NCBI GenBank assembly: GCA_050260255.1
Contig: JBLNBW010000208.1
Span: forward strand, 1 to 53,169
DNA from: Rhodospirillaceae bacterium
GTDB lineage: Bacteria; Pseudomonadota; Gammaproteobacteria; Burkholderiales; SG8-41
Direction: 5' to 3'
DNA: 53,169 nucleotides
Part shown: in pieces, positions 14,984 through 34,278 of the stretch
Layout of the letters: each line of letters opens with the position of its first letter
How positions within the stretch are numbered: position 1 is the stretch's first letter
Program-made: the position numbers and the translations under genes
Notes under the pieces: generated by a model
Databases searched by the model: none
What the model was told of the DNA's origin: nothing
The model's input: the letters and a program-made list of their open reading frames with translations, nothing else

Positions 14984-15682
14984 TCAGAAAAGATTGCCGA
15001 GTCGGACGAGCTCGTATACCGGCACGCCGAACACCTGCGCGATGCCGACGATCGTGATGTCTATGATAGGCCACAGCACGGCGCCCAGCAGGCCCGTGAA
15101 GAGCAGCACGAGCAGTATGGGAAAGCCCCAGCGCTCGAGCCGTGCGAAGCGCAATGCGTAACCGTGCGGCAGCAGGCTCACCAGGATGCGTCCGCCATCG
15201 AGCGGCGGCAGAGGCAGCAGGTTGAGCGCCATGAATATGACGTTGATATAAATGCCCGCCGCGCCCATCAGCGCGAGCGGCAGCGCATAACGCGTCTCGG
15301 GGAACGCGAGATTCGTCTTGAGCACCGCGGCCCACAGCAGCGCCATCGCGAGATTGCTGCCCGGACCTGCGGCAGCGACCCACAGCATGTCGCGCTTCGG
15401 ATGACGGAGATTGCCGAAATTCACCGGCACGGGCTTCGCCCAGCCGAAGAGGACGCCGCCACCGCCCATGATTTTCCCGAGCGCAAGAAGTATGAGCGGC
15501 AGGAGCACTGTCCCGATCGGATCGATGTGCCGGACCGGGTTCAGCGTCACGCGCCCGGCGGCGTACGCCGTCAGATCGCCGAAACGCATCGCCACGTATC
15601 CATGCGCCGCCTCGTGCAGCGTGATCGCGAGGATAACGGGCAACGCATAGACGGCGATGAGCTGAGCTAGGTTGAGTTCCAT
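14984..15682 (-). CDS. Site-2 protease family (M50) membrane metalloprotease
   Basis: HEAAH, TLNPVRHID, FGWAKPVPV, AAAGP, NLLPLPPLDG; start MELNL. Confidence 0.92.
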   Translation of the reverse strand: MELNLAQLIAVYALPVILAITLHEAAHGYVAMRFGDLTAYAAGRVTLNPVRHIDPIGTVLLPLILLALGKIMGGGGVLFGWAKPVPVNFGNLRHPKRDMLWVAAAGPGSNLAMALLWAAVLKTNLAFPETRYALPLALMGAAGIYINVIFMALNLLPLPPLDGGRILVSLLPHGYALRFARLERWGFPILLVLLFTGLLGAVLWPIIDITIVGIAQVFGVPVYELVRLGNLF

Positions 15683-15812
15683 TGGGGTGGCTCGCGCGCC
15701 GGCTATGACCGTCGTGGAGCCCCTGGTTGTCGGTATGTCCGCTGGCACCGCCGCGGGCGGGCGACGGCAGGCGGAAGTATAACAAATGAGCTGCCGCCGA
15801 TCGTAAACAGCC

Positions 15813-17441: not shown

Positions 17442-19616
17442 TCACCAGCCTGCTTCGCGCCACACCAGCGCCATCGCGGCACGCACGAAATCGGAAGCCA
17501 GTGACTCCTCGGTGCCGCTGATGACCACTTTGCCCCGCCAGGTATGTGCGGCGAGCTCCGCTTCGGCAGCGGGCACGGCAAGCGTTACCCGGTACACAGC
17601 CTTCTCGGGCACGAGCTTTCCGTCGGCCTCGCGCGCCTCGACCGAGCCGCCGTGCTGAGCGGCCAGCAGCGGCGCATCGAGCGCGTGGGTCGCATCCTTG
17701 TCGACGCTGACGACGCGCAATCCGATCGCATGGCCGGAGCGGCCGTCGGGATAGAACATCGCCGTATCCCCGACCGCGATCCGGTGAACGGCGTCTTCCG
17801 TGACGTAACACTCGACGTACCAGCCGTCGCGGCTCACGACCGTCGCGAGCTGCTCCGAACGCGCGATCCACGAGCCGGGCCGCACATCGGGGTCGTGCAG
17901 GCGAAAGTGGCCGTCGACTCGGGCAACGGGCTCGTATTCCTGCTTTTGCGATTCCAGTCCGCGGCGCGCCGTCTGCGCCGTCTGCAGTTCGCCTTGTCGC
18001 ACCAGCAGCTTCGCACGTTGCTCCGGACTAAATGCCGATACGGCGATCTCCGCGTCATAGCGTTGCACGCGGCTGCGCGCTGCAGTAAGCCGCTGATCGA
18101 GCTGCTCTGCACTCATGCGCAACAGCGGCGTACCGGCTTTCACGAACGCGCCGTCCGTCACGTAAACCTGTTCGAGCCGTCCGGCATCCCGCGCGTGAAC
18201 CGGAAATTCCTCTCCCGGATGCAGCAGCCCGGACGCTTGTATGCGGCGTGGAAGCGGCACGAAGCACAGCGCTACGGCAGCCAAAACCACGAGCATGGTG
18301 ACGTACGACCGTCCGCTTTGGCGGATGCCGGGCAGCAGCGCGCGCCAAGTCTTCAGTTCGGAATAGATGGGCATGAGAACGAACCAGATGATTTCGACCG
18401 CGAAAAGGACTATGCCGACCGCCTTGATGAAGAACGAGTACACCAGTATTGCGATGCCGAGAAAAACCACGAGCCGATAGCACCACGTGAAGTACGCAAA
18501 CAGTAGCAGGCCACGCCGCCGCTGCCTGCTGTAATGCTCGGGCGGCGGTGCGCCGAGAGCGAAGAGCAGCTCGCGCAGCCGCCATCGGGCCAGGGCAAAG
18601 GCACGTGCATGCAGGTTCGGCATCTCCAGAAAATCGGACAACAGAAAATACCCGTCGAAGCGCATGAAGGGGCTGCAATTGACGATGACGGTGCTGACCC
18701 AGGTGGTCGTCGCAAGCAGGAACGCTGCCGTGCGCAGGACGCCATCGGGCAGAAACGCCCACGCAAGCGTCGCCCACGCAGCAATGAGGAGTTCGGTGAT
18801 GACGCCCGCAGCACCGATATGGACGCGCTGGCGTCGCGAGGTGAGCTTCCACGCCTCGTTGGTATCGGTATACGGCATGGGCCACAGCACGAGAAATGCG
18901 ACGCCCATTGCCGGCACGCGGCAGCCGTAGCGCTTCGCAGTGAGCCCGTGTCCGAGCTCGTGCAAGATCTTGACGAACACCAGCGTGCACACGTACGACA
19001 CGATGCCCGATACGCTGAAAGTGCCGACCAGCGTCGTTCTGAAGACATCCCATTCACGATAGACGAACGCAAGCCCCGTCACCATGGCAACGCCCGTAAT
19101 GGCGAAAAAGCGCGCCGTGAACAGGAAGCCGAGCTTGTCGTTCAGCGATGCAAGTGCCGCGTCGGGATGCACGAGCGGAATGCGGAAGAAGAGATAACTG
19201 TGCAGCAGACGTTGCCACAGCGAGTGCGTCAGGCGCGCCTTCACCGCTGCGAACTCGCCCGACGTATCGGCACCGGGCGTATGCGCGAGCTGGTTGCTGC
19301 GCAGGAACTTCCCGACCGCCTGCACGTCGTCGGCTGTTACGTCGAGTGTGGTTTCGGCGTTGACCGCCTCGACAATCCGCCGTACGCCGCCAAGATGCCA
19401 GTGGGCGAGTATTTCGAACGTGAGCCAGTCGAGCTGGAAATAGAGATTGCGCACGGGATCGTGCAGCGTCCAGCTCGGTTGTCCATCGCGCAGCCGCGGC
19501 CCTTCGTGCAGCTGCAGTTCCTCGCGCAGCCGCGGCCACGGATACGAATGAGCGAGCTTAAGACGCGGCGCCACTCGACCCGCGTTGGCGTTTGCGCTAG
19601 ATACCGAAGAATTCAC
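17442..19616 (-). CDS. M50 (site-2) metallopeptidase fused to a C-terminal HlyD-like adaptor domain; PqqD-like N-terminus
   Basis: HELGH (18948-18962) and NCSPFMRFDG in a multi-TM region; C-terminal barrel-sandwich/coiled coil (VTDGAFVKAGTPLL). Confidence 0.85.
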   Translation of the reverse strand: MNSSVSSANANAGRVAPRLKLAHSYPWPRLREELQLHEGPRLRDGQPSWTLHDPVRNLYFQLDWLTFEILAHWHLGGVRRIVEAVNAETTLDVTADDVQAVGKFLRSNQLAHTPGADTSGEFAAVKARLTHSLWQRLLHSYLFFRIPLVHPDAALASLNDKLGFLFTARFFAITGVAMVTGLAFVYREWDVFRTTLVGTFSVSGIVSYVCTLVFVKILHELGHGLTAKRYGCRVPAMGVAFLVLWPMPYTDTNEAWKLTSRRQRVHIGAAGVITELLIAAWATLAWAFLPDGVLRTAAFLLATTTWVSTVIVNCSPFMRFDGYFLLSDFLEMPNLHARAFALARWRLRELLFALGAPPPEHYSRQRRRGLLLFAYFTWCYRLVVFLGIAILVYSFFIKAVGIVLFAVEIIWFVLMPIYSELKTWRALLPGIRQSGRSYVTMLVVLAAVALCFVPLPRRIQASGLLHPGEEFPVHARDAGRLEQVYVTDGAFVKAGTPLLRMSAEQLDQRLTAARSRVQRYDAEIAVSAFSPEQRAKLLVRQGELQTAQTARRGLESQKQEYEPVARVDGHFRLHDPDVRPGSWIARSEQLATVVSRDGWYVECYVTEDAVHRIAVGDTAMFYPDGRSGHAIGLRVVSVDKDATHALDAPLLAAQHGGSVEAREADGKLVPEKAVYRVTLAVPAAEAELAAHTWRGKVVISGTEESLASDFVRAAMALVWREAGW

Positions 19617-20958
19617 GTATCGTCGCGAGCGGGCGCCGCACTATCCAATACGCCAGCGGGACCTCTTCGCCGGCCAGCCGCACGGTGCCTTTGAGACCGA
19701 TGCGATGAGGCGTATCGCGATCGAGGACCGCGCGAACGCGATAGGCGTACACGCCATCGGGCCGCCGCACGGCGTCATGCGAGATGTAGCGAATGCTGCC
19801 TGCCACAGGATCGAGCGGGCTTGCCGACAGATACAGGCGCGCGCTTGCTTTTTCCGGAAGAGGTATGGCGTCTGCGGCACCCATCCACGCCTCGATCTCC
19901 TTGTCCTGTGGGCTCGCCAGGCGAAGGATGCGCTCGCCGGTACTCACCGGCCGCCCTATCCATTCCGATGGATCATCGAAGATCACGTAGCCGTCGTTCG
20001 GCGCGACAACCGTCGAGCGCGAGCGCTGGGTCTTGAGAAAATCGAGCTCGGCGCGTCGCTCCGCGACCGTACCGCGCGCCGAAGGCAGCTGCGCCCTCGC
20101 CTTCGGATCCATGAGCGCCTGTTGCTCGTACTGGCGCAGCTCGGCTTCCGCCGTGCGTAGCGCCTGCACAGCAACGTCGTACTTGCTGCCGATCGCGATG
20201 TCGTCGAAAGCAAAGAGACGATCGCCCTTCTTCACCGCCTGGTTCGGGCGAACGTAGAACTCGCTCACGACGCCGTCGAGCGGCGCGCGCACCGCGACCG
20301 GTTCCGCGGGCACCAGCTCGCCCGGGGCAAGAACCGTCAAGGGGACCGGCACCGAGAGCGCGGCTGCGGCAGCGGCGACGAGCGCGATGCGCCATGTCCG
20401 TACGCTCTTCTTGAACCGGTGCCACCGGGCGCTCCACGAGCGGCGATATGTCGCTTCAGCGCGCGCGTGATAAGCAAAGCGCCACGTGTCGATCCAGTCG
20501 TAGATGTCGTGGATTTCGTCGTCGGTCCACGGCGTGTCCCGTGCGAACAGCACACCGCCGCGAGGTATGCCGTCCCGTGCGTCGCTGGCCGCTATGGGTA
20601 TCCAGAGTCCGTGCTCCGGCAGCCAATCGGACCATTCGGCAGCGTGGCGCTCGTCGAGGTCGTTGCGATCAATGCGGCCTGCGCCCTTGTTCGCGAGCCG
20701 CTTGCACGTTGCATTCACCCACTGGACATAAGGTGCGTTGCGCTCGATGTCCACCACCCCGGACAGTGCCGTCGTGGCGCCGACTTCGAACCACAGTGCC
20801 GCCTGCCGGTACGGCGCGAGCAGATGCGTGTCGTTGACCACGATGAAGTGCAGCGCCGCGACATCCGACGCGGTGCGGGCGCGCCGTATCAGCTCCAGCG
20901 CGACTGCGGCGGTGCTTGCGATCCCGATGGACGGCTCGGCCTGGTTCATGGAGCTCAA
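19597..20958 (-). CDS. HlyD-family membrane fusion protein with an N-terminal cytoplasmic (GAF-like) domain
   Basis: ~190-aa soluble N-domain, one TM, then VRAPLDGVV..VRPNQAVKKGD..APNDG lipoyl halves; start 20958 or 20949. Confidence 0.8.
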   Translation of the reverse strand: MSSMNQAEPSIGIASTAAVALELIRRARTASDVAALHFIVVNDTHLLAPYRQAALWFEVGATTALSGVVDIERNAPYVQWVNATCKRLANKGAGRIDRNDLDERHAAEWSDWLPEHGLWIPIAASDARDGIPRGGVLFARDTPWTDDEIHDIYDWIDTWRFAYHARAEATYRRSWSARWHRFKKSVRTWRIALVAAAAAALSVPVPLTVLAPGELVPAEPVAVRAPLDGVVSEFYVRPNQAVKKGDRLFAFDDIAIGSKYDVAVQALRTAEAELRQYEQQALMDPKARAQLPSARGTVAERRAELDFLKTQRSRSTVVAPNDGYVIFDDPSEWIGRPVSTGERILRLASPQDKEIEAWMGAADAIPLPEKASARLYLSASPLDPVAGSIRYISHDAVRRPDGVYAYRVRAVLDRDTPHRIGLKGTVRLAGEEVPLAYWIVRRPLATIREFFGI

Positions 20959-23900
20959 CCCGCTTTAGTCGGTGTTGACATCGCTTGTCTCACCTTCGCT
21001 AGCGGCATACGAACGCGCATTTTGTGCTCGCGCAGTTGCTGCTGCAGTCCCGGGCGTCCGTCGAATTGCTTGGTCTTCGCTTCCGCAATCACCAGCCCCG
21101 CTTCGTCAGCCGCCTCGCCCTGCACCTCGCGGCCGGGTTCTCCTGGAATCTGCCCCTGCTGCTCCGGGTCGGGCTGCGGCTCTTGTCCCTGCTGGCGATT
21201 CGGCTGCCGCGGCGCTTGTCCTTGCTGTGCAGCGTCCGGCAGTGCGGGCGCGTGCGCCGGTGTCGCCGGACGATCCCCAGCGCCCTTGTCGCCGACATGG
21301 AAGCGGAACAGCGATTCGACTTCGTTGCCGCTCGAGTCGCGGGCGATCACCTTGATCTGCAATTCGCCCTGGAAGTTTTGAGGCGGCTTACCTTCGAACA
21401 CGCCGGTCGTGCCGTTGAACGTGAGCCACGGTGGCAGCGGTGTGCCGTCCGCCATCTGCGCGGCAAGCGTGAGCCTCTCGCCCGGATTCGTGTGCATGAA
21501 GGTGCCTTCGGGCACAGCGAACTTCGCTTCGCCGTTGCGCTCGGCGAACTGATCCGGAATCGGATTGGCGACGGTAAGCGACGGCGGCTCCGGCGGCGGC
21601 GCGCTCTGCTTGACTACGATCTCGGTCGGAATGAACGGCTGCTGGGCAGGCAATGCCGGCGGCGGCGGAGAAGGCACGACCGTAGGCGGAACGATGACGA
21701 CCGCGACCGGCGGTTGAGGCTTGGGCTTGTCGTCGTTCGGTGTCAGCGACGTCGCCTTGCCGTCCGCGTCGTACACGATGCCGGTGCCATCATCGACGAG
21801 CGTGGCTACGCCCTCCGCCGACCGTCCGCCGGTATTCGTTGCCGTAAGTTGGAGTGTTTCCGCGCCCTCGTACTGACCGTCGTCGACGATGGCGGTGCGT
21901 ACCAGGAGTTTCGTGCCGCTTGCCGGTATGCGGATGAAGCTGTTCGGCGCGTAATCGACCCATGACGTGCCGTCGAAGTACTGCAGCGGCACTCCCGCGC
22001 CGGCATCGGCCGTATCTATGCCCAGCGTCGCGTCGACGTCCCCTGCGGTCGCCGTATTGCCGAGCGCCAGCTTCACCTGCTGCCCCGGGCTGCCGGTCAC
22101 CGTGAACACCGCATACGGCGAGGCTTCGTTCACCGTGATCGAGTTCACCGACAGCGGACGATCGTCATCCTTCGGGGTCGTGTCATCCGTCGTCGGTCCA
22201 CCGTTCGGATCGTTGGGATACAGCACCCCCGTGCCGTCGTCGACGATGGTGCCCACACCTGCGGCGCCGCTGCCGCCGGTGTTCGTCGCCGTCAGCGTGA
22301 AGGTTTCTGCCCCTTCATACACAGCGTCCTGCTTGATGGTCGTACGCACCAGCATCGTCGCACCCGGCATCGTGACGTAACTGCCGGCGGTGTAATCCAC
22401 CCAGGCGGTACCGTTGTAGTACTGCAGCGCGGTTCCGGTGTCGGTTCCCAGCGTCGCATCGGTGTCTGTGGTCGCTGCCGTATTGCCGAGACCCAGCTTC
22501 ACTTTCTGCCCGGCGTTGCCCGTCACCGTGAACACCGCATACGGCGAGGCTTCATTCACGGTGATCGAGTTCACCGACAGCGGACGATCATCATCCGGAG
22601 TGTTGCCGGTCGGATCGCCGTTGGGCCCGTATACGACGCCGGTTCCATCGTCGACGATCGTCGCGATGCCGGTGTTACCGAGGCCGCCGGCGTTGCTCGC
22701 GGTGAGCGTAAACGTTTCCGGCCCCTCGTAGACTCCGTCGTTGACGAGCACTGTGCGCACCAACAGCGTCGTCCCGCCTGCCGGGATGGCAACCAGACTG
22801 CCAGGCGTGTAGTCGATCCACGCCGTGCCGTTGTAGTGCTGCAGTGCGACGCCATTACCGGCGTTAGCCGTATCGATGTCCAGCACCGCGTCGACGTCGG
22901 TCGTCGCCGCCGTATTGCCCAGATCGAGCTTCACGAGCTGACCCGCCTGCCCGGTCACCGTAAACACTGCGTACGGCGAAGCTTCGTTCACGGTGATCGA
23001 ATTCACGGTAGGTGCAGGGCCGCCGCCGGACTTCAGCGAACCGTTCGCGCCGAGATCGTAAGTAGCCGACGATGAGTCACCGTCGGCGTCGGTGACCGTC
23101 TGTTGCAGCACAAGCACGCCGGCATTGAGCGTGAGGCTCAGTCCCTGCGCGGAGCTCGCCGCGTCGCGATACAAATTCTTCGACTGCGTGAAGGTCACTA
23201 CCCCGGTGCTCGCGTTCACGCTGATGCGGAGGTACTCCGTCGCGCCTACCGTGCCGACAACGTCGTTACCCACCTTGTTGAGCACGATCTGGCTGCCCTG
23301 GCCCACGCCGTCGCCATCCGCGCTCGACGTGTCGCTCGCGTCCAGCGCATACAGCCCCGAGCTCACGTTCGTGCCCGTCAGATTGAGCGCGTAGGCTATG
23401 CTGCCTGTGCCGTCCGTGCCGTAGATGCCCGTCGTCGCAAAGTGGCTGGAGAAATCCCCCGTGGCGCTCACCGCGCCGCCGCCGAGATTCGTCTCGTCCA
23501 GCGTCACCGCCACTGCCGTCGTCGGTGTCGCAGTCGCCGCGGTGGGGCCGTCATCCTTCACCTTGAACGCACCTGCCGTACCGAGGTTGAGATCGCCCGT
23601 GACGACGTCACCGTCCGCGTCCGTTACGGTTGCGCGAATCGCAATATCACTGGCATTGGCCGTGGTCAGCGTCGAGCTGTCGTCTGCGTTCGCGGTATTG
23701 CTATGCCAGATCGGCCTCAGCTGATTGAACGTGATCGCGCCGGTGGCGGTATTCACGGTAATGGTGAAGTAATTGGTGCCGCCGACGCTTCCCGTGATCG
23801 TGTTGCCCGCGAGGTTCATCACGATCTCGCTGCCTTGCCCGATGCCGTCGCCGTCGGTGTTCGACGTGTCGGACGCGTCGACCGCGTAAAGACCGGAGCC

Positions 23901-26900
23901 GACGTTCGTGCCGTTCAGAACGAGACTGTAGGATGTGGACCCCGCGCCGTCCGCGCCGTAGTTGCGTGCAGTAGTGATGTCGTCCGCAAAGCTGGCCGTT
24001 GCATCGGTGGCGAGATCCGTGTCGTCCACCGTCAGCGTGTCCCCCGTGTCAAACGTCATCGCGGAAAGCGTGGGGGTGTCATCCACGATTTCTATCGTGA
24101 CCGTCTTGGTCGCGTTCGCATTGCTCGAATCGGTGACCTTGACGTCGAACGTGTTCGTTTCCGTCGTGTTCGCGACATCGGTCGTCGCGCTCGTAAGCTG
24201 GAAACGGTAGGAAAAGGTGCCGCTGTCGTAACCCGTGAGCGTGACGGTTCCATTCGCCGTGGTGAAGCTCGATCCGACCATCCCGGAAAGACTGCCGGTC
24301 AGAACCGTATCCGCCTTACCCGGCGTCGAGAACGTGATCGATGCGATGTCGGCCAAGCCATCCGGATCGCTGACGGCAAAGTAACCGTCGAAATACTCGT
24401 ACGGGCTCGACGCGTCGCTTCCGGTAGACATCGACGACTCGTACACGGCGCCCGTCGACGGCGTAACGGAAATCGACGGTGCATCGTTGGCCGCCGTAAC
24501 GTTGATGGTGACCGTCGCCTCGCTGGAGGTGAGCGCCCCGTCGGTGATCGTGTACGTGAAGCTGTCGCCGCTCGTCGCATTCGAGCCGGGCATGTAATCC
24601 GTCGAGCCGTCGCTCTTGATGTAGAGCGTGCCGTTCGCGAGCGTCACCTGCTTCCAGCCGCTGCCGCTCGGGTGATTGGTGCTATCCGTGCTCGACGCCA
24701 GATTCGAAAACAGCACACCGTTCACGGAGGCCATCGTCAGCGCGGTAACCGTCGTTTCCGGATCCGAGTCCTGTCCTGCCGATCCGTCCGTGTCGGTGAT
24801 GACGTTCTTACCCGCGAGCAGCGTATCTTCCGTCGCCGTATAGGTGTTGTTCTTTGCCGCCGGCGCGTCATCAGCGCCGTCGATGGTGATTGTCAGCGTG
24901 GAGCTCGACGTCGCTGCCGCCGTGTCTTGCATGGTGTACGAGAATACGTCGGTCAGCGTCTGCCCGGCGCCGAGCGCCTGCACCGTCGCGTTCGTGTTAT
25001 CTACCGCATAGGTGTACGAGCCGTCGGAGCTGATCGTCAACGTGCCGTAGAGGCCCGCGATCGACGTGTTGGTGGAGACCGCCGATTCCGTATTGCCGTT
25101 CTTCGCTGCGGACTTCACTGTCTTCGTATCGCCGGCGTCCACATCCGTGTCGTTCGTCAGGACGTTACCGGTGGGGTTGACGCCCGCGCTGCCGTTCGAC
25201 GTACCGCCTGCCTCGGCGGCAGTCGCTGTGTCGGCCGTCGCTGCGGGATTGTCATCTGCCCCCTGGATAGTGACCGTGATGGTGGTCGTGTCCTTCAAAA
25301 GCGCGCTGTTCGCGCTGGCAAACTGTCCGTTGGCGACCTGGTACGTGAATACGTCGGTCAGCGTGTCGGACGACGTGCGCAGCGCCTGCACGCTCGAGTT
25401 GCCGTTGTTGACCGTGTACGTGTAGCTGCCATCGGAATGCAGCACCATGGTCCCGTACAGGCCATTGAGCGTGAGATTGGTGCTGGACGCGGCGACGAAC
25501 AGCACGTTCACGCCGGTGCCGCTAGCCGTTGCATTCTGGCTCAGCGTGATTGTCGTGCCGCTCACTGCGGTCACTGTCGTGCCGGACGCGATTCCGGTAC
25601 CTGTCACCGACATGCCGGCGGTAATACCCGTCGCCGAAGCCACGGTGATCGTGGCAGTGCCGCTCGTGGTCGACGCCGTCGTCGTTGCGTAAATCGTCGT
25701 GTCGCTCGAGTCGCTCGCAGCGCGACCCGCGATGACTTGCAGCGTACCCGTTGGCGTCGTGTCGGCAGTGGCACCGCTCGCACCGGTCCCCGTCACGACG
25801 TTCCCGGTCGGGTCCGTACCTGCCGTACCGTTGCTCACACCGCCTGCCTCGACAGCCGTAATGCTGTCCGACTTGGCGTTCGGGTCGTTCGTGCCGGAGC
25901 CGTAGACGGTGATGTACAGCGTCTTCTGATCTGTCGAGCCTGCTGCGTCAGCTACGGTGTACTTGAACGTTTCTACGAACGACTCGCCTTCGCTGAGATT
26001 CGTATTGGCATTGGTCGGCGTGTATGTATACGAGCCGTCAGACGCGAGTGTCAGCGTTCCATGACGCCCGGTGACCGTGGTGCCGGCGCTCGCGCTGAAC
26101 GACAGCGTGGTCCCGTTGGTCACGCTCGTCAGCGCATTGTTGACGACGATCGAAGTGATGTTGCCTGAACCGTCATAGGTTACCGAGCTGACCGACGTGC
26201 TGGCCGGGACGTTCGTTCCGGTCACCGTCATCCCGACCGCAATAGCGCCGCTCGGCGCAGAAATCGTCACGGTCGTGGTCCCGGTCGTCGTCGCCGACGA
26301 CACAGTACCCGATTTCATGCTCGAACTGGTCTCGGTCGTGGTGCTTGACGAATTTTTGAAGCCGATCGTGGTGTTGTTGAAGTCACTGATAACGACCCGA
26401 TTGCCGGGAGCACTAGCGTCGTAGTAGCTGTACGGCTGGCCGCTCAAAGGAATCGTACGACCGGTACTATCATAGCCACCGGTTGCCGTGATCTGCGCGC
26501 CACCGCTCGTAAACAAAGCACGCCACGTGTTATCGCTCGATACAAAGAACCACGCCTCGTCGCCGTTGCCGACCGGACTGAACGTCGTTCCCGGAACGAA
26601 GGTTAGCTGAGAAGTTACGCCACTGGTATTGACGTTGCTGACGGTAGCCGAGCCGGCCAGTCCGCTCACCGTCTTTGTTTCCCCGTTCCGGTCGACGTCC
26701 GTATCGTTCGTCAGGACATTCCCCGTCGCCTTGCTGCCCAGGGAATCAGACGACGTATATTGCGTGCCGTCCGTGAGCAACGACTCCTTCGCGGTGTTGT
26801 AATCGTCAGCGCCGACCGGATTATCGTTCGCGCCCCTGATGGTGATTGTCAGTGTCGACGTCGATGTCGTCGTGGCGTCGCTTACCGTGTAACTGAAAGT

Positions 26901-29189
26901 CTCCGTCAGCGTGTTGGTGGTAAGGCGCAGCGCCTGGACGGTAGTGTTGGTGTTGTCTACGACGTATTTGTACGTCCCGTCCTGAAGAATGCGGAGTTCG
27001 CCGTACAGGCCGAGCGCCGTCGCGTATGCCGAGGAGATGTTCGTGTGCGATGTGGTGACGCTCGTTGCGGTAGACGTCTTTGCGGTGTTGATCACCGAGC
27101 TCACGACGATGGTGTTCCCATCCGCATCCGCATCGGCCGTTTTGTTCGTATCCGATCCCCCGGTAAGCGACACGACGCCGGTCAGCACGTTGCCCGTCGG
27201 GTCGGTCCCTGCCGTTCCGTTGCTCGCACCGCCAGCCTCGACCGCCGTGTTCGTATCCGCGACGAGCGTCGGCGCATCGTTGACCGCGGTGACGTTGAGC
27301 GTAACGGTCGCCGACGTGCTCGAAGTCGCCGTGCCGTCGGTGATCTTGTATGTGAAGCTGTCGCCGGCCGCGCTGTTGGCGTTCGGCATGTACTTGAACG
27401 ACCCGTCCGACTTGAGATAACCCGTGCCGTTAGTGAGATTGAGAACCTTGTATCCCGTGTACGTGTTGCTGTCCGTGAGGCTCGAAAACGCGGTGGTAGT
27501 GCTGCCGATCGTGACGCTCGCGATCGTGAGCGACGACGTTGCCGTTTCCGTGTCCGAATCCATTCCCGCGCTCGGGTCCGCATCGGTGACGATGTTGCGG
27601 CCGGTGAGCAGCGTGTCTTCGAGGGTCGCGTACGTGTTGCTCTTCGGCACGGGCGCGTCGTTGATACCGAAGATCGTGCGCCATGTCTCCGAGCCCGAGT
27701 ACGCTCCACCCCCGATGTCGCCGTTCACCGCGTTCTGCTGCGTCGCCGACACCGCCGCGCCGTAGAGCGTCCCGCCGCTCGTCGGCCACGACGAAGCGCT
27801 CAGCGCCTGCTTGCCCCCACCCAGATTGCCCACGTACGTGTAGAAATCCGCGTACGCCTGGGTGTCGAAGTTCATCACGTAGTAATTTTCCGTGACGCCG
27901 TCCGAGTCCAGGTCGGTCTCCGGAGATAGCGCGAAATACACGTTCACGTTCGCGTTGTAGCGATTTCCCGTCGTCTGCACACCGGAAGTTCCCGTCGCCG
28001 ACTTGTTCGTTCCCGAGTCGTAGATGAGAAACATGTGCTGCGCGTCGAAGGTCGTGTTGTTCGGCCTTGTGTTGTCGGTCGCACTGCTCGAGTCGAGCGC
28101 CACGAAATAGAGCTGGTATGTGTAGTTCGACGTGTCGTTCGCCACCAGCCCCGTCGTCCCGTTGACGTCGGCCGATCGGTCGTAGCCGTTCTTCTGCACC
28201 ACGTGCACGAAGAGTCCGAACTCCGGTATGCCATCGGCGTTCATGTCGAACAGGATCTGCCCCCAGTCGACCTCGAGGTCCTTCGGCGGCGCCTTCTCCA
28301 GCCGGAACTTGACGTTGAGGACGCTGTTGCTGCTCGTGAGCATGTACTGCAGGTACGGATGCGCGCTATCGCTCACGATGTCCGGCGCAGCTGCCGTCCA
28401 ACCGCCGTCCGAAGGCGTCTTGTTCGGATCGGCCGCACGGCCTACGGTAATCCAGCCGCTGTCGCTCGGCGTGGCGGTTTCCACGCTGATCGCCTGACCG
28501 TCGATGCTGAGCACGTGGTGGTCGTTATCCACCCCCGTGCCGATAGCCTGCACGGTGGCAAGATCGTTGCTCGCCACATGCGAGAAGAGCTCGCCCTCGT
28601 CGCCCGGAGTATCCGACGCGCCGTTGAGGACCGCGTCGAATGCGTGGCCTATCTCCTCTAATAGGACTGCGACGCCGTCTTTCGCCGGCGCATTGGCGAG
28701 CCAGTCGCCATCGACGTAAAGCGTCGGCTGACCGGAAGGATCGTTGGCTGCAAACGCCCCGTGCGCGCCGGCCATTTCAGTGGAAGACCGTATATCGACG
28801 CGCAAGCCGAAGTTGTCGTCGAGGATCGCGTTCTTCAATGCGTCGGCAGCGCGGTTCCATTCGTCGTTGCCTGCATTCGCCGTGAAGATCTCAGCGAGCT
28901 TCTGACGCCAGTCGTCACGCCCGAAGAATGCCTGGAGCTGCTCGCGCACCTGCGGCTCCAGCGCCTTCACCGCTTCGCTTCCCGCAGAGGAGTTTTCGGC
29001 AGCGATTTTCAGCAGGTGGGCTCCGATATCGACCGGCGCAGTCGTATCGGCTGCATGCGTCGCAGCATCGGCGGCCGCGGCGCCGTCGAACATGAGACGG
29101 CGCTCCAGGGCGAGCGGCGCCGGACTGTTGCGTACGGGCCCACGTTTCTTTTTCCCTGCCTGTCCTTGCATACCCGCGTATGAGCTCAT
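20955..29189 (-). CDS. Giant secreted repeat protein / adhesin (2744 aa)
   Basis: N-terminal LERRLMFD, EEIGH motif, cadherin/VCBS-like repeats (NDAP, GNVLTND, YGTL...DGSYTY), two DUF5801-like repeats, three NEASPY repeats, dystroglycan-type cadherin (LPPWLTFN); Thr/Ser/Asp rich. Confidence 0.9.
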   Translation of the reverse strand: MSSYAGMQGQAGKKKRGPVRNSPAPLALERRLMFDGAAAADAATHAADTTAPVDIGAHLLKIAAENSSAGSEAVKALEPQVREQLQAFFGRDDWRQKLAEIFTANAGNDEWNRAADALKNAILDDNFGLRVDIRSSTEMAGAHGAFAANDPSGQPTLYVDGDWLANAPAKDGVAVLLEEIGHAFDAVLNGASDTPGDEGELFSHVASNDLATVQAIGTGVDNDHHVLSIDGQAISVETATPSDSGWITVGRAADPNKTPSDGGWTAAAPDIVSDSAHPYLQYMLTSSNSVLNVKFRLEKAPPKDLEVDWGQILFDMNADGIPEFGLFVHVVQKNGYDRSADVNGTTGLVANDTSNYTYQLYFVALDSSSATDNTRPNNTTFDAQHMFLIYDSGTNKSATGTSGVQTTGNRYNANVNVYFALSPETDLDSDGVTENYYVMNFDTQAYADFYTYVGNLGGGKQALSASSWPTSGGTLYGAAVSATQQNAVNGDIGGGAYSGSETWRTIFGINDAPVPKSNTYATLEDTLLTGRNIVTDADPSAGMDSDTETATSSLTIASVTIGSTTTAFSSLTDSNTYTGYKVLNLTNGTGYLKSDGSFKYMPNANSAAGDSFTYKITDGTATSSTSATVTLNVTAVNDAPTLVADTNTAVEAGGASNGTAGTDPTGNVLTGVVSLTGGSDTNKTADADADGNTIVVSSVINTAKTSTATSVTTSHTNISSAYATALGLYGELRILQDGTYKYVVDNTNTTVQALRLTTNTLTETFSYTVSDATTTSTSTLTITIRGANDNPVGADDYNTAKESLLTDGTQYTSSDSLGSKATGNVLTNDTDVDRNGETKTVSGLAGSATVSNVNTSGVTSQLTFVPGTTFSPVGNGDEAWFFVSSDNTWRALFTSGGAQITATGGYDSTGRTIPLSGQPYSYYDASAPGNRVVISDFNNTTIGFKNSSSTTTETSSSMKSGTVSSATTTGTTTVTISAPSGAIAVGMTVTGTNVPASTSVSSVTYDGSGNITSIVVNNALTSVTNGTTLSFSASAGTTVTGRHGTLTLASDGSYTYTPTNANTNLSEGESFVETFKYTVADAAGSTDQKTLYITVYGSGTNDPNAKSDSITAVEAGGVSNGTAGTDPTGNVVTGTGASGATADTTPTGTLQVIAGRAASDSSDTTIYATTTASTTSGTATITVASATGITAGMSVTGTGIASGTTVTAVSGTTITLSQNATASGTGVNVLFVAASSTNLTLNGLYGTMVLHSDGSYTYTVNNGNSSVQALRTSSDTLTDVFTYQVANGQFASANSALLKDTTTITVTIQGADDNPAATADTATAAEAGGTSNGSAGVNPTGNVLTNDTDVDAGDTKTVKSAAKNGNTESAVSTNTSIAGLYGTLTISSDGSYTYAVDNTNATVQALGAGQTLTDVFSYTMQDTAAATSSSTLTITIDGADDAPAAKNNTYTATEDTLLAGKNVITDTDGSAGQDSDPETTVTALTMASVNGVLFSNLASSTDSTNHPSGSGWKQVTLANGTLYIKSDGSTDYMPGSNATSGDSFTYTITDGALTSSEATVTINVTAANDAPSISVTPSTGAVYESSMSTGSDASSPYEYFDGYFAVSDPDGLADIASITFSTPGKADTVLTGSLSGMVGSSFTTANGTVTLTGYDSGTFSYRFQLTSATTDVANTTETNTFDVKVTDSSNANATKTVTIEIVDDTPTLSAMTFDTGDTLTVDDTDLATDATASFADDITTARNYGADGAGSTSYSLVLNGTNVGSGLYAVDASDTSNTDGDGIGQGSEIVMNLAGNTITGSVGGTNYFTITVNTATGAITFNQLRPIWHSNTANADDSSTLTTANASDIAIRATVTDADGDVVTGDLNLGTAGAFKVKDDGPTAATATPTTAVAVTLDETNLGGGAVSATGDFSSHFATTGIYGTDGTGSIAYALNLTGTNVSSGLYALDASDTSSADGDGVGQGSQIVLNKVGNDVVGTVGATEYLRISVNASTGVVTFTQSKNLYRDAASSAQGLSLTLNAGVLVLQQTVTDADGDSSSATYDLGANGSLKSGGGPAPTVNSITVNEASPYAVFTVTGQAGQLVKLDLGNTAATTDVDAVLDIDTANAGNGVALQHYNGTAWIDYTPGSLVAIPAGGTTLLVRTVLVNDGVYEGPETFTLTASNAGGLGNTGIATIVDDGTGVVYGPNGDPTGNTPDDDRPLSVNSITVNEASPYAVFTVTGNAGQKVKLGLGNTAATTDTDATLGTDTGTALQYYNGTAWVDYTAGSYVTMPGATMLVRTTIKQDAVYEGAETFTLTATNTGGSGAAGVGTIVDDGTGVLYPNDPNGGPTTDDTTPKDDDRPLSVNSITVNEASPYAVFTVTGSPGQQVKLALGNTATAGDVDATLGIDTADAGAGVPLQYFDGTSWVDYAPNSFIRIPASGTKLLVRTAIVDDGQYEGAETLQLTATNTGGRSAEGVATLVDDGTGIVYDADGKATSLTPNDDKPKPQPPVAVVIVPPTVVPSPPPPALPAQQPFIPTEIVVKQSAPPPEPPSLTVANPIPDQFAERNGEAKFAVPEGTFMHTNPGERLTLAAQMADGTPLPPWLTFNGTTGVFEGKPPQNFQGELQIKVIARDSSGNEVESLFRFHVGDKGAGDRPATPAHAPALPDAAQQGQAPRQPNRQQGQEPQPDPEQQGQIPGEPGREVQGEAADEAGLVIAEAKTKQFDGRPGLQQQLREHKMRVRMPLAKVRQAMSTPTKAG
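21727..23013 (-). repeat. Three tandem ~140-aa repeats (VNSITVNEASPYAVFTVTG...IVDDGTG) within the giant protein
   Basis: Near-identical DNA blocks around 22100-22160, 22525-22585 and 22955-23010. Confidence 0.9.
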
Positions 29190-29222: not shown

Positions 29223-30023
29223 TCAGCGCGACGCGCTCGCAGACGAGAAGGAAGCCCGGCCGCTCATGCCGGCGATCAGCTCCGGGAAGTGGCCGTCGAT
29301 GACCGCGGAGATCTTCACCGATTGGCTCACCGCATCGACCCGCGCACCGACGCGCTGGACTTTCGCCGGATACGTGCGTCCGGTCTCGTCGATACGCACG
29401 CGGAACGCCTGCCCCGTCCTGAGCCACGACAGCCACCGGGAAGGGACAATGAATTCGAGTTCGAGCGCGCTGTCGTCGATGATTTCGAGAAGCGCCTGCC
29501 CCGGCTGAACGAATTGCTGCTCGCGCGCTTTCTGCTCCGCGACGCGCCCGCCGAAGGGCGCGGTGATGTTGCACTTGGAGACATAAGCCGTCGATGAATC
29601 GAGCTCCGCCTTGTTCTTTTCCATCTCGGCCTTCGATACGTCGAGCTCCAGTTTGCCGACGGCGTTGAGCTCGGCGAGGCGGACGTTGGCTTCCCAGGTC
29701 CGCGCCGCAGCGCTGTACGCCGCTTCCGCTTTTTGCATTTGCGCGGACTGTATGCTGCAGTCGAAAGCGACGATGACGTCGCCTTCCCTGAAGCGCCCCC
29801 CTTCGGGAACAGGCAGCCGGTTGATCTTTGCGCCGATCTCGGCGGCAAGGGTCGTGTAGCGGCGCGGCAGCAATTGCGCGCGTATCGATTGGCCGGAACT
29901 CGCCGGCGCGGTGGTCTCGGTCTGCGAACCCGACTGGCCGACCGATTGCGCGGCCAGCGGGCCAGCAGCGCAGTACAGGCTGGTGAAAACGAAAATTGTG
30001 GCGAGTGTCTTCATTGTAGTCAT
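29223..30023 (-). CDS. Periplasmic adaptor (RND-type membrane fusion protein)
   Basis: Signal-like N-terminus, LAAEIGAKI..EGGRFREGD, ITAPFGGRV, VDAVSQSVK, LIAGMSG. Confidence 0.87.
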   Translation of the reverse strand: MTTMKTLATIFVFTSLYCAAGPLAAQSVGQSGSQTETTAPASSGQSIRAQLLPRRYTTLAAEIGAKINRLPVPEGGRFREGDVIVAFDCSIQSAQMQKAEAAYSAAARTWEANVRLAELNAVGKLELDVSKAEMEKNKAELDSSTAYVSKCNITAPFGGRVAEQKAREQQFVQPGQALLEIIDDSALELEFIVPSRWLSWLRTGQAFRVRIDETGRTYPAKVQRVGARVDAVSQSVKISAVIDGHFPELIAGMSGRASFSSASASR

Positions 30024-30135: not shown

Positions 30136-32250
30136 TCAACGAGTCGACACCGATGCGTCGGTGAGCTTCTCCGGCAACGGAAAGTTCTTGACCGTCACGA
30201 CCATGCTCATGTACCCGGCCAGCGGACGCTCGTCGTAGTGCACGACGCCGTGCTCGTCGACCCACTTGTACATTTGGCGTCCGGGACCAGCGCTCTCACC
30301 CACGCGAAACACGAGCCCCTTCAGGCTCGCAGCCGGGACCTCCCCGTTCGCCGGTGCCGGCGCTGCGGCCACTGCGCCCGTCTGCTCGGGTTGCTCCGGC
30401 GCTTCGGAGCGGTCCTGGGTGGTCTTCACACCTGCGCTTTCGGTGCGGTGCGTCTTCTCAGGCGAATCCTCCGAACCCATGGCCGGCTTCGGCGCCGCAG
30501 ACAACGATTCGACGGGAGGCTGTGCCGCCTGCAGGGCCGGAGCCGCTGCCGCGACGTCACTCGATGGGTCGATCGGGCGCGACGAGCCGGACACCGCGGC
30601 TTTGGTCGTCGGCGCGGCAGACGCGCCTACCGTCACTGCCTTTGTCGGCTGCGGCGGTTCTGAAGCGCGCGTCACCGTCGCGGCCGCCGCCTTGGGCGTT
30701 GCGTCGCCGCTCTTGAGCGGTTCGCCGCTGGTCGGCAGATCGCCGTTCTCCCAGCCGGCGAGCGCTTTCGAAACGATGTCCTTCAGCTGCGCGAGGCTCA
30801 GGTCCTGAACACTGTCGAATTCCGGCTCCACACCCAACGTTGCCTGCAGCCGGCTTGCGGCGGCATGCGCCTGCGACAGCGCCTGATAACGGCGCAGGAG
30901 GCTCAGGATGGCCGTCGTACGATTGGCCACGGTCTCGAGCTTGCTCTGCACCTGCGCCTGCTCGCGCTTGGCCATGATCTCCACGATGCGCTGATCGACG
31001 TCGGCGACGTCCTGCGCCCGCTCGTACTGGTTGAGCGCGTTGGCATATTGCAGGCGTGCGATGTGCACCTGCGCCAATATCGCCATCTGCATCGCCATGC
31101 GCCGCTGATCGGCGAGGGCGACCCCTGCGTCCGCAAGACGCTTCTGCGAGGGGCCGGACAGCAGGTTGAACAGGTTGAACGAGATGGATGCGCCCGCCTC
31201 GTTCCAGTGTCGGTTCACGAGAAAATTATCGGTATCGTATTTCGTGTTGTAATTGAACGACACGCCGGGAAAGAGCCGCAGGATCACCTTGCGCGTCTCG
31301 TCGCCCGCTATGCGTGCATTATAGAAATGCTCTCGCAGCTCGGCGTTCCGCCCCACCGCGATCTCTTCCAGCTTTTCAACCGGCACATCGAGCATCTTCC
31401 GGCTGACCGTTTCCGTCGGCTCGGCGACTTCCAGGTTGAAGGCGAGCGGAACGTTCATGAGGTGCGCGAGCTCGAGCCGGGCGGTCGTCAGCTCCTGATT
31501 GGTGGATTCGAGCAGACGCAGGTTCTCCAGCACCTGCCGCTGGTAGCGCAGGCTTTCCACCGGCGATCGCACCCGCTCCGCTTCCGCCTTGCGCGCATCC
31601 TTGAGCGCGTCTTCGGCGAGCACGATCGCATCCTGCACCTGCTTCTGCAGTTTCTGCGCGCTTGCCGTGCGCCAGAACGCCGTGCGCACGTCCTGAATGA
31701 GCACGTGCATCGCCTTGCGCCGCCGTTCCAGCGCTATCAGCACGCGGTTGGCGTTCTGCTTCGCCCCGTAATAGCTTGCGCCGAAATCCAGCAGGTTCCA
31801 CGTGAGCCCCATGTCGTACAACACATGGGACCGCTCGGTGGAGATGAACGGATTGCTGAGCGCCGGCTGGCCGGTAACCGAGTCCCTGCTGCGGGTGATG
31901 AGCTCCTTGTCGCGCCACCGGTAGCCCGCTTGAGCGAGCAGGCGGGGCAGCATGTCGTACTGGCTGACATCGAGCTGGTTCAGCGCGATAGCCTCTTCCA
32001 TCATGCGGCTGCGGCGCTCGAGGTTGTATTTGAGCGCACGCGCGATGGCTTCCTCCAGCGTGATCTTGCCTTTAACGGGCTCTATCTCGGACTGGGCCTT
32101 CGCGCGGTCGGCAGTCGCAGTGGCGCGCAGCTCGTCATGGGTGACAGGAAGAGGCTGAATTCCTGAGCAGCCGGCGATGAATAGAGTCGCAGTAACCAGC
32201 GCTATCGCTTTTACGGGCGCGCTTGCGCGCCCCCTTCGGCTGCAGTGCAT
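30136..32250 (-). CDS. TolC-family outer membrane lipoprotein with Ala/Pro linker and C-terminal DUF4124-like domain
   Basis: Lipobox IAGC, ITLEEAIARALKYN, LTWNLLDFG, helical OEP repeats; tail MYKWVDEHGVVHYDERP. Confidence 0.87.
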   Translation of the reverse strand: MHCSRRGRASAPVKAIALVTATLFIAGCSGIQPLPVTHDELRATATADRAKAQSEIEPVKGKITLEEAIARALKYNLERRSRMMEEAIALNQLDVSQYDMLPRLLAQAGYRWRDKELITRSRDSVTGQPALSNPFISTERSHVLYDMGLTWNLLDFGASYYGAKQNANRVLIALERRRKAMHVLIQDVRTAFWRTASAQKLQKQVQDAIVLAEDALKDARKAEAERVRSPVESLRYQRQVLENLRLLESTNQELTTARLELAHLMNVPLAFNLEVAEPTETVSRKMLDVPVEKLEEIAVGRNAELREHFYNARIAGDETRKVILRLFPGVSFNYNTKYDTDNFLVNRHWNEAGASISFNLFNLLSGPSQKRLADAGVALADQRRMAMQMAILAQVHIARLQYANALNQYERAQDVADVDQRIVEIMAKREQAQVQSKLETVANRTTAILSLLRRYQALSQAHAAASRLQATLGVEPEFDSVQDLSLAQLKDIVSKALAGWENGDLPTSGEPLKSGDATPKAAAATVTRASEPPQPTKAVTVGASAAPTTKAAVSGSSRPIDPSSDVAAAAPALQAAQPPVESLSAAPKPAMGSEDSPEKTHRTESAGVKTTQDRSEAPEQPEQTGAVAAAPAPANGEVPAASLKGLVFRVGESAGPGRQMYKWVDEHGVVHYDERPLAGYMSMVVTVKNFPLPEKLTDASVSTR

Positions 32251-33654: not shown

Positions 33655-34278
33655 CTACTTCTGATGCAGCCGACTTTGCGCCGGCACGTGCTGCGCGAGA
33701 AACTCCATTTGGTCGGCCAGGATGCGCCGATTGGTGAGTATCAGGTACTCGGCGCGATTCGGCACGTACGGCAGATAGACGAGCTCCATCCCCGCGCCTT
33801 CCGGCGTGCGATCGCTCTTGCGCTCGTTGCACGAGCGGCAGGCGGTCACTACGTTCATCCAGCTGTCGCGCCCGCCGCGCGAGAACGGAACGATGTGATC
33901 GCGCGTGAGCTTGGATATCGGAAACATGCCTGCGCAGTAGGCGCAGATCTGGCGGTCGCGATGGAAGAGCTCGCGGTTGTTGAGCGGCGGCACCTGGTGG
34001 AAGGACTTCATCGCCATCGCCTTGCCCTTGATGGCGATGATGCTGCTCGCGGTGATCTCAGAGCGGGTGCCGGTAATCCTGTTCAGGCCGCCGTACACCG
34101 TGAAGGCGTTCTCGCCGAGGCTCCATGCGACCTGATTTTTCGCGTAGTAGTAGCAGGCGTGCTGCCAGGTGATCCAGCGATGCGGCACGCCATGGGTATC
34201 GAGCGTGAGTATCAGAGGGAAGGCCGCCTGCATCGGCTCTTCGGTACCCTGATGTAGCTGCTGCACCTTGGCGTCCAT
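33655..34278 (-). CDS. HNH endonuclease family protein
   Basis: RDRQICAYC...TRDHIVP.SRGG..SWMNVVTACRSCNERK; start uncertain (34302/34278/34233). Confidence 0.9.
   Translation of the reverse strand: MDAKVQQLHQGTEEPMQAAFPLILTLDTHGVPHRWITWQHACYYYAKNQVAWSLGENAFTVYGGLNRITGTRSEITASSIIAIKGKAMAMKSFHQVPPLNNRELFHRDRQICAYCAGMFPISKLTRDHIVPFSRGGRDSWMNVVTACRSCNERKSDRTPEGAGMELVYLPYVPNRAEYLILTNRRILADQMEFLAQHVPAQSRLHQK

Follow-up and report, generated by a model that had tools for sequence, protein, structure and literature searches.

A predicted RRE-fold domain fused to an M50 protease and a HlyD-type adaptor, as the candidate core of a pump-less, TolC-linked system for a giant repeat protein

The window analyzed here, meaning the whole 53,169-nucleotide stretch of DNA, carries on its reverse strand a gene cluster with a conserved order: a TolC-like outer-membrane factor, a short adaptor, a giant repeat protein, a second adaptor with a GAF-like domain and, as the last gene, a fusion that we refer to as P0001. 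The TolC-like gene (30136..32250 (-)) encodes 704 aa with a C-terminal extension and matches the OEP family (PF02321, E 6.4e-31), and the short adaptor (29223..30023 (-); 266 aa) is of the HlyD/RND type, scoring 117.9 bits against TIGR01730, for which the cut-off is 94.9. Homologues of these two are present in 15 and 22, respectively, of 80 related loci, and are seen where the flanking sequence reaches that far. The giant protein, the presumed cargo, is encoded at 20955..29189 (-) and is 2744 aa long, with VCBS, tandem-95 and T1SS-143 repeats. Between it and the fusion gene lies P0002 (19597..20958 (-); 453 aa), with a GAF-like N-terminal region of about 165 aa, one transmembrane helix and a HlyD adaptor domain that has matches in both Pfam and NCBIfam; the GAF-like label is a lead from the ESM Atlas only. 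A homologue of P0002 is found directly upstream of the fusion gene in 78 of the 80 loci. The genes of the cluster abut or overlap one another, and the neighbors further out are a regulator and housekeeping genes. A scan for promoters and terminators yielded a number of sites no higher than in shuffled sequences, and across 60 loci there is no conserved gene downstream of the fusion. The cluster is widespread: 574 stretches were confirmed in species-representative genomes, and more than 5,000 protein clusters were obtained for it.

The fusion gene itself spans 17442..19616 (-), starts with a GTG codon, shares 20 nt with the gene upstream of it and encodes a protein of 724 aa, whose N-terminal residues NSSVS are common to its closest homologues. 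It joins an RRE-like domain, an M50 intramembrane protease and a HlyD-type adaptor, and is the only polytopic inner-membrane protein of the cluster. The site-2-protease membrane domain (18252..19202 (-); residues ~139-455) scores above the Pfam cut-off for PF02163 (35.6 bits, cut-off 27.2) and is matched over residues 139-415 by the NCBIfam model daptide_HExxH (NF041824, E 6.6e-40), although its 137.4 bits are well under the curated 300-bit cut-off of that model. The aligned profile positions are 94-364 of 379, such that the first 93, on the RRE side, are unaligned. The YydH/LiaK model of NCBIfam also matches the protease (E 1e-9).

An earlier note made from this DNA had drawn attention to the span 18651-19530 (-), which corresponds to residues 29-322 of P0001, and had proposed that a leader-binding, a cleaving and an adaptor module are combined in one chain, with the zinc motifs of the protease intact. 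Both motifs are indeed in place, HELGH at 18948..18962 (-) (residues 219-223) and NxxPxxxFDG, here NCSPFMRFDG, at 18651..18680 (-) (residues 313-322), the latter with the third zinc ligand, D321. Their key residues are invariant in all 27 full-length homologues (H219, E220 and H223 in the first; N313, P316, F320, D321 and G322 in the second). The adaptor module is recovered as well: the periplasmic adaptor (HlyD/MFP) domain at 17442..18251 (-) (residues ~456-724) passes the Pfam cut-off for HlyD_3 (35.9 bits, cut-off 22.2), and the full-length model resembles MacA (3fpp, E 7.6e-14), with MexA and EmrA matched too. Seven transmembrane helices are predicted, an arrangement that would place the N-terminal domain in the cytoplasm.

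The PqqD domain, or RiPP recognition element (RRE), is built of three strands and three helices and binds leader peptides, which add an extra strand next to strand 3 and helix 3, and the note had read this same topology from the N-terminal residues of P0001. The domain in question lies at 19287..19535 (-), residues ~28-110, and is predicted to be cytoplasmic; the stretch that the note quoted, WTLHDPVRNLYFQLDWLTFEILAHW...FLRSNQL, is found at residues 49-110. An AlphaFold2 model of residues 24-130 alone, built with an alignment of 44 sequences, has a pLDDT of 87 and a pTM of 0.75 and contains three strands (12-16, 25-30 and 35-39) followed by three helices (41-48, 55-65 and 72-84; adding 23 gives the protein numbering), as the note had anticipated. 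In the full-length model, which used an alignment of 27 sequences, residues 53-61 around the third strand have a pLDDT below 50.

Structural comparisons place this model close to characterized RREs. The first nine Foldseek ranks are all RRE-bearing chains, namely TbiB1, lasso B1 and CteB, and the lower rows include TigE, PqqD, TglI, LynD and MccB mixed with non-RRE chains such as GdmN; the best E value is 2.3e-3, and none reaches 0.001 or below. Alignment with VIA-align gives a Z score of 10.9 for the lasso B1 protein 6jx3_B (rmsd 2.6, 82 of 85 aa), 10.2 and 10.0 for TbiB1 (5v1v and 5v1u) and 8.4 for PqqD (5sxy), where the best background score in such alignments is typically 7-8, and the generic winged-helix DNA binders among those listed (CssR and LrpC) score 4.1-4.2. 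The predicted fold is thus not one unrelated to PqqD or the winged helix, its closest structures being leader-bound RREs with PqqD among the matches, and the model supports the assignment of a PqqD/RRE fold to this domain.

The same assignment fares differently at the level of sequence profiles: what the note had called PqqD/RRE-like stands by structure, with RRE matches at Z 10.0-10.9, but not by the Pfam model for PqqD, PF05402, which matches none of 44 members of the N-domain family even at E<=10. PF05402 has no match in the organism's own genome, and a Pfam search with the whole of P0001 found no PqqD domain. Among the 44 N-domains NCBIfam returned only two weak matches, to PqqD_rel_WgkC at E 0.14, and a profile search of the PDB with the domain gave nothing relevant, with only a V-ATPase at E 0.4. 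An hhalign comparison with 23 Pfam-positive PqqD domains placed 72 columns in register at E 4.5e-4, with a probability of only 33%, and in the ESM Atlas, which is searched with a protein language model, PqqD clusters make up 19 of 30 named matches with a score of 0.95. Other genomes encode proteins of cNMP-PqqD-M50 architecture in which PqqD is Pfam-positive (E 1.8e-6), and their M50 core aligns to residues 218-340 of P0001 with 31% identity (E 3e-14).

That no family HMM matches the region could be taken to mean that there is no real domain at all, and that the pattern of strands and helices arises by chance in what is only a linker. We regard this as extremely improbable, because the domain is kept in all 80 related loci with a mean column identity of 57%, and a search at E<=0.001 recovers it in 969 cluster representatives; the confident model and the Z scores of 10-11 to RREs, against a background best of 7-8, likewise contradict it. 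Among 150 listed representatives there are no distant relatives in other architectures, all being members of the same family or fragments, and a few of them carry the domain at internal positions. A search for a shorter, stand-alone RRE-M50 protein recovered mostly short-contig proteins that resemble truncated copies, and showed no split form.

A common fold is no proof of a common function, and the domain could instead play a regulatory or structural role that involves no binding of cargo, gating the protease or docking the GAF-like domain of P0002, in the manner of accessory domains of other site-2 proteases. P0002 has its own conserved cytoplasmic domain, and its gene overlaps that of P0001 and is adjacent to it in 78 of the 80 loci. 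The nearest structures, however, are specifically leader-bound RREs and not generic winged helices, and the M50 core of P0001 falls in the branch of RiPP leader peptidases, and a regulatory or structural role of this kind seems to us unlikely.

The note had likened the fusion to peptidase-containing ABC transporters without the ATPase, and this description holds for the type of locus to which P0001 belongs, where no ABC or SecA-like motor is encoded nearby. There is no ABC exporter in the cluster or on the contigs that carry the system; all seven PF00664 matches in the organism's own genome sit on other contigs, and ABC-like matches occur in just four of the 80 loci. No SecA-like match is present in the window or in any of the 80 loci. 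The organism's own genome contains two SecA_DEAD genes on other contigs, sharing 57% identity over 628 aligned residues, and both are cut at contig ends.

The presumed cargo carries conserved elements at both of its ends. Near its N-terminus, after a basic stretch, lies the motif LALERRLMFDGA (29079..29114 (-); cargo residues 26-37), whose consensus, L-x-L-E-x-R-x-M-F-D-G-A, is present at every readable cargo start. Exactly one copy per locus, located at the cargo start, is seen in 25 of the 80 loci, and in most of the others the flanking sequence stops short of this position. Residues L28, E29, R31, M33, F34, D35 and A37 are invariant in all 25 leaders. The NCBIfam model LEPR-XLL (NF012209) is matched by 16 of the 25 segments, with a best E value of 6.8e-4, the window's own segment being unmatched, and judged by sequence the leader appears to be a variant of LEPR-XLL. 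At the other end, the motif GRPGLQQQLREH (21024..21059 (-)) lies 22 aa from the C-terminus and follows a conserved Ig/cadherin-like domain. Its family consensus is GRxGLSEQLRxA, of which the window copy is a degenerate version, as judged from an alignment of the window tail with 69 others drawn from the 78 loci that have the upstream adaptor match. C-terminal homology to the cargo is syntenic in the loci related to that of P0001.

We have also examined how the leader tag and the N-domain are distributed across 151 genomes of the order. Both are present in 12 genomes, the domain only in two, the leader only in two and neither in 135, and the organism's own genome has two systems and two tagged giants. 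Neighborhood and co-occurrence tie the cargo to the machine but are silent on which of its parts reads which tag, P0002 having a GAF-like cytoplasmic domain of its own. Co-folding of the N-domain alignment with the cargo leader alignment returned a score of 0.00 against a mark of 0.32; it was run without controls and weighs neither way on binding.

The C-terminal motif is an equally testable candidate ligand for the N-domain. The RRE-fold domain would then recognize a tag of the form GRxGLSEQLRxA placed 15-50 aa from the end of the cargo, and the M50 domain would trim the C-terminal tail, in an arrangement reminiscent of a type I secretion signal. Conservation between the window tail and the 69 locus tails extends over the motif and the preceding Ig-like domain, this is the only cargo segment found by tblastn across most loci, and M50 proteases that cut at the C-terminus, TglG and TmoG, have been described (PMC10885120). 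Yet the window copy, GRPGLQQQLREH, is degenerate whereas the N-terminal motif is invariant at seven positions, and the published precedent for an RRE joined to a site-2 protease takes off an N-terminal leader (10.1101/2023.03.08.531785). Recognition of the C-terminal tag is in our judgment a doubtful alternative to recognition of the N-terminal leader.

It is also conceivable that the system in fact acts on a small peptide with a leader, whose gene lies at some other place, and that the giant is just a neighbor, or a user of the duct that the RRE does not read. The characterized RRE and M50 RiPP systems covered in two accounts all act on small peptides (PMC10885120; 10.1101/2023.03.08.531785). 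The cluster genes, on the other hand, abut or overlap, no credible small precursor ORF was found between the TolC-like gene and the regulator, the 60 loci share no downstream gene, and the tags of the giant track the machine, both being present in 12 genomes and both absent from 135. A small-peptide substrate thus appears quite improbable.

Our preferred reading, to which we would assign a probability of about one half, is that P0001 is an RRE-guided leader protease and adaptor core that handles its giant neighbor within a pump-less, TolC-linked machine. P0001 would form the inner-membrane core of this conserved machine, and its cytoplasmic domain of PqqD fold would take up a short linear tag of the cargo as one more beta-strand, the favored tag being the N-terminal L-x-L-E-x-R-x-M-F-D-G-A leader. 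It is plausible that the N-domain binds the giant within its initial ~45 aa and that the protease then cleaves. Binding would keep the cargo chain at the cytoplasmic face, beside the HELGH/NxxPxxxFDG active site, where the RiPP-type site-2 protease could cut off the leader as MpaP does those of daptides, and the HlyD domain at the C-terminus of P0001 would join with two more adaptors, one with the GAF-like cytoplasmic domain, to bridge to the TolC-like channel. We infer the topology of P0001, the tag that is bound, whether and where cleavage occurs, and both the direction of export and its source of energy.

A broader form of this proposal, which we put forward more tentatively, is that the RRE reads an LEPR-XLL-type leader on surface proteins of 2,000-4,000 residues, and that the fusion is the inner-membrane core of a trans-envelope route not described before, built from TolC and three adaptors and seen here in a betaproteobacterial form without an ABC transporter or SecA paralogue, in which cleavage of the leader commits or releases the giant. 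To our knowledge RREs have so far been associated with small peptides, and not with proteins of 2,700 aa, and full-text literature searches returned no work in which PqqD/RRE, M50 and HlyD are connected with giant proteins, nor any on the MFDGA motif. The export of giant repeat adhesins is commonly credited to ABC-driven type I secretion, and here a widespread cluster places such proteins beside three adaptors and a TolC duct in the absence of a pump. If the RRE does read the leader, a function could be given to the LEPR-XLL-type N-termini of many giants, so far unexplained, leader recognition of the RiPP kind would reach very large proteins, and a defined pair of peptide and domain would offer an entry to an unstudied export route.

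There are precedents for parts of this arrangement, in the RRE-S2P fusion of MpaP and in the M50/HlyD/GAF/OEP locus reported in 2015 by Kamneva, Poudel and Ward (PMC4452313). The latter is conserved and was described as 'secondary SecA_DEAD / type I secretion-related', and by its Pfam content it has the same set of genes as the P0001 cluster, with Peptidase_M50/HlyD, GAF/HlyD, HlyD and OEP proteins and, as it is described there, no ABC transporter (PMC4452313). It differs in that its defining gene encodes a shortened SecA paralogue, and no such paralogue is present in the P0001 window or in the 80 related loci. The words PqqD, leader and adhesin do not occur in the main text of that paper (PMC4452313).

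Among stand-alone RREs, the lasso B1 proteins and PqqD (6jx3, 5v1u, 5v1v and 5sxy) share the fold of the P0001 domain over about 82 residues, with Z scores of 8.4-10.9 and rmsd values of 2.6-2.8, but are only 17-20% identical to it, and PF05402 misses the P0001 domain. They also serve a cysteine protease and cyclase or a radical SAM enzyme, whereas the P0001 domain is fused to a membrane protease.

Peptidase-containing ABC transporters (PCATs), together with HlyD and TolC, carry out type I secretion of substrates with double-glycine leaders. The comparison concerns the logic, in that a single inner-membrane component of the P0001 system would likewise recognize the N-terminal leader, cut it and link up with TolC through an adaptor. 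Unlike a PCAT, the P0001 system has neither an ABC ATPase nor a transmembrane exporter domain, and in place of a C39 cysteine peptidase it has a zinc intramembrane enzyme to which the adaptor is fused.

The M50 protease of the epipeptide system, EpeP/YydH (NF058609), is thought both to cleave and to export its peptide (PMC10885120). It too belongs to the RiPP branch of M50 proteases and is related to P0001 at E 1e-9, but it comes from a Gram-positive source, lacks an adaptor and TolC, and has a small-peptide substrate.

A parallel in the order of its parts is the daptide protein MpaP, in which an RRE lies N-terminal to the site-2 protease that removes the leader (10.1101/2023.03.08.531785). 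As described in that account, MpaP has no HlyD adaptor, TolC or giant cargo, and its substrates are short peptides that carry an ELExMEAP leader and end in Thr (10.1101/2023.03.08.531785); the daptide context of short precursors ending in Thr with a decarboxylase, an aminotransferase and a methyltransferase was not found around P0001. The two proteins nonetheless both have an RRE fused N-terminally to a site-2-protease core, their M50 cores are related (E 6.6e-40), and the logic proposed for each would be the same, with the RRE holding the leader and the protease removing it.

The gene for P0001, a 724-aa fusion of an N-terminal domain, an M50 protease and an HlyD adaptor, is called as an ORF at 17442..19616 on the minus strand, and the span 18651-19530 singled out in the earlier note corresponds to its residues 29-322. 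The ORF opens with a GTG and shares 20 nt with the end of the upstream gene; the NSSVS N-terminus is common to its closest homologues. P0001 is the last gene of an operon lying entirely on the minus strand, which runs from a TolC-like channel (704 aa, 30136..32250) through a short adaptor (266 aa, 29223..30023), the 2744-aa VCBS/tandem-95 repeat protein presumed to be the cargo (20955..29189), and the partner adaptor P0002 (453 aa, 19597..20958). About 200 aa of the TolC-like protein lie beyond its OEP repeats (30136-~30750, minus strand), with a weak DUF4124 match at residues 659-676. A LuxR-type response regulator, adjoined by a 215-aa HNH endonuclease ORF (33655-34302, minus strand), lies upstream of the operon, and housekeeping genes lie downstream; among these (PHP, Sua5/YciO and TrpRS) is another M50 protease of only 254 aa (14984-15748, minus strand) that appears unrelated to the P0001 system.

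Searches for the P0001 family gave over 5,190 clusters of proteins ~700 aa long, and 574 stretches were confirmed in species-representative genomes, with matches mostly in Betaproteobacteria and some in Gammaproteobacteria and Opitutaceae. We kept 80 loci for comparison; the match starts by query residue 31 in every one, and all contain the N-terminal domain. In a few representatives the domain is internal (P0129, P0152, P0249 and P0257; for example residues 302-403 of 633 and 448-559 of 1147), suggesting that it was fused to the upstream adaptor or that gene calling read through. P0001 residues 24-130 were aligned with 43 of the 80 loci, picked for diversity and leaving out two whose segment has a stop at its edge (mean column identity 57%). 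AlphaFold2 on this alignment (pLDDT 87, pTM 0.75) predicts three strands followed by three helices, as the earlier note had read from the sequence of residues ~30-110, and, less confidently, a further helix.

Does this fold make the domain a RiPP recognition element (RRE)? In a Foldseek search of the PDB, ranks 1-9 are chains of TbiB1, lasso-peptide B1 and the sactipeptide synthase CteB, with probabilities of 0.99-1.00 but a best E-value of only 2.3e-3; lower rows hold TigE, PqqD, TglI, LynD and MccB mixed with non-RRE chains such as GdmN. VIA-align, run on the Foldseek candidates and with a stated typical background best of 7-8, gives Z scores of 10.9 against 6jx3_B (82/85 residues, rmsd 2.6), 10.2 and 10.0 against TbiB1, and 8.4 against PqqD, versus 4.1-4.2 for the generic winged-helix DNA binders listed. 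PqqD clusters also make up 19 of the 30 named matches (score 0.95) in a protein-language-model search. Sequence models tell a different story: PF05402 matched none of the 44 aligned members even at E<=10, nor anything in a profile scan of the window's own genome; NCBIfam gave only two matches (E 0.14), to a PqqD-related model; and a PDB profile search with the domain found nothing relevant. Alignment by hhalign to 23 PqqD domains recognized by Pfam, taken from same-class genomes, placed 72 columns in the right register, but with a probability of only 33% (E 4.5e-4). Because the structure matches RREs and the sequence models do not, we take the fold and its similarity to RREs, both proposed in the earlier note, as sound, but do not place the domain in the Pfam PqqD family by sequence.

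Pfam finds no match within the first 140 residues of P0001; Peptidase_M50 follows at residues 210-305 (35.6 bits against a cut-off of 27.2), and HlyD_3, HlyD_D23 and Biotin_lipoyl_2 at residues 471-643. The nearest NCBIfam models for the membrane part are RiPP leader peptidases: the daptide intramembrane metalloprotease model NF041824 aligns over residues 139-415 (profile positions 94-364 of 379, E 6.6e-40) with 137 bits, under its cut-off of 300, and the YydH/LiaK model matches at E 1e-9. Both zinc motifs are intact as described, HELGH at residues 219-223 and NCSPFMRFDG (NxxPxxxFDG) at 313-322, with key residues invariant across 27 full-length homologues. In the full-length model (pLDDT 78.8, with residues 53-61 poorly predicted) seven long hydrophobic helices, the second with HELGH near its inner end, separate the N-terminal domain from the adaptor, which resembles MacA (E 7.6e-14); from this arrangement we infer that the RRE would be cytoplasmic, beside a cytoplasm-facing active site, and the adaptor periplasmic.

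The genomic company of P0001 is well conserved upstream. A P0002 homologue directly precedes the P0001 homologue in 78 of the 80 loci, and the cargo C-terminal segment precedes the P0002-type adaptor in most. One of the two loci without a P0002 match has no upstream sequence; the other, L043, is the one locus where ample sequence upstream (7.9 kb) yields neither a partner-adaptor nor a cargo-tail match, perhaps as a rearranged or orphan copy. The short adaptor is present in at least 22 loci and TolC in at least 15, which are minimum counts, as the giant gene fills the 10-kb flank. Downstream, the 60 loci whose flank is 4 kb or longer have no conserved gene.

Every cargo ORF whose start lies within the flank has a single L-x-L-E-x-R-x-M-F-D-G-A motif preceded by a basic stretch (on the plus strand in 24 loci, on the reverse strand in one), with no second copy elsewhere in those 25 loci. 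The window's version, LALERRLMFDGA, occupies cargo residues 26-37, and an alignment of the window with 24 loci (25 rows) shows L28, E29, R31, M33, F34, D35 and A37 to be invariant; 16 of the 25 segments, the window's own not among them, match NF012209 (LEPR-XLL). We sampled 151 genomes from the order with profiles of the N-terminal domain and of this leader (E<=0.01); each matched 14, with both present in 12 and neither in 135. The two domain-only genomes are one 92% complete and one with its match at a contig end; the leader-only pair are a weak match with an internal stop and a genome 86% complete. Because related genomes are not independent, we attach no test statistic to this co-occurrence. 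In the window's own genome there is a system on each of contigs C208 and C58 and a tagged giant on each of C208 and C290. The second, diverged copy is split over the short contigs C58, C30 and C290, and includes an M50-HlyD protein 39% identical to P0001, a partner adaptor, a short adaptor, TolC, and a tagged giant of more than 3,000 aa with the motif LLALEARVLFDG.

In the simplest reading, the RRE would bind a tag on the cargo and present it to the protease, and the three adaptors and TolC would form a duct. We favor the N-terminal leader as the candidate ligand, because it is invariant and because the only published RRE-S2P (site-2 protease) enzyme removes an N-terminal leader. The ligand could instead be a C-terminal tag: when the window's tail is aligned with those of 69 loci (of the 78 that have an adaptor match, 69 gave a tail), a conserved Ig/cadherin-like domain (~100 aa) is seen, followed by GRxGLSEQLRxA, 15-50 aa from the end (21024-21059, minus strand, in the window). 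This conserved C-terminus may act as a signal for secretion or recognition. The ligand could also be a GAF-like domain in P0002, whose N-terminal ~165 aa (20464-20958, minus strand) have no Pfam or NCBIfam match; that assignment comes from ESM Atlas GAF clusters (0.94-0.95, 155-161 shared features), a lead only. The earlier observation on P0001 is confirmed and its interpretation supported for fold and architecture, the function being only plausible.

Fusions of this general kind are already published. The daptide preprint (10.1101/2023.03.08.531785) reports 80 RRE-S2P fusions and removal of the daptide leader by the RRE-dependent peptidase MpaP, and M50 enzymes named in a RiPP protease review include EpeP, TglG and TmoG (PMC10885120); because of these we regard RRE-plus-M50 as a known type. 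The PF05402 genome scan also recovered proteins in which a Pfam-positive PqqD domain (E 1.8e-6) is joined to two cNMP-binding domains and an M50 core 31% identical to P0001 residues 218-340 (E 3e-14), in other genomes of the class (L111:2227-4299, minus strand; L112:339-2345, plus strand); these lack an adaptor. The tally takes in one unpublished genome, G039, whose locus is unused and on which no claim is based. P0001 differs from the published RRE-M50 proteins by its fused HlyD adaptor and its genomic company.

The proposed resemblance to peptidase-containing ABC transporters without the ATPase agrees with the gene content: no ABC exporter lies near the operon, ABC-like matches are absent from the window and occur in 4 of the 80 loci, and the seven ABC_membrane matches of the window's genome are all on other contigs. 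Kamneva et al. 2015 (PMC4452313) describe a locus of Peptidase_M50/HlyD, GAF/HlyD, HlyD and OEP genes, with no ABC gene, that has the same gene set at the Pfam level but is built around a shortened SecA paralogue; neither the window nor any of the 80 loci has a SecA-like match. The window's genome does hold two SecA_DEAD genes on other contigs, both cut by contig ends (C253:3-1973, minus strand; C194:3-2702, plus strand) and 57% identical to each other, which points either to a genuine second SecA or to contamination, reported at 3.5% for this assembly. The words PqqD, leader and adhesin are absent from the main text of the Kamneva paper, and a full-text literature search found no paper linking an RRE to giant proteins. 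Both RRE-S2P peptidases and the pump-less M50/HlyD/GAF/OEP locus are known in print, and the P0001 system is a variant of both.
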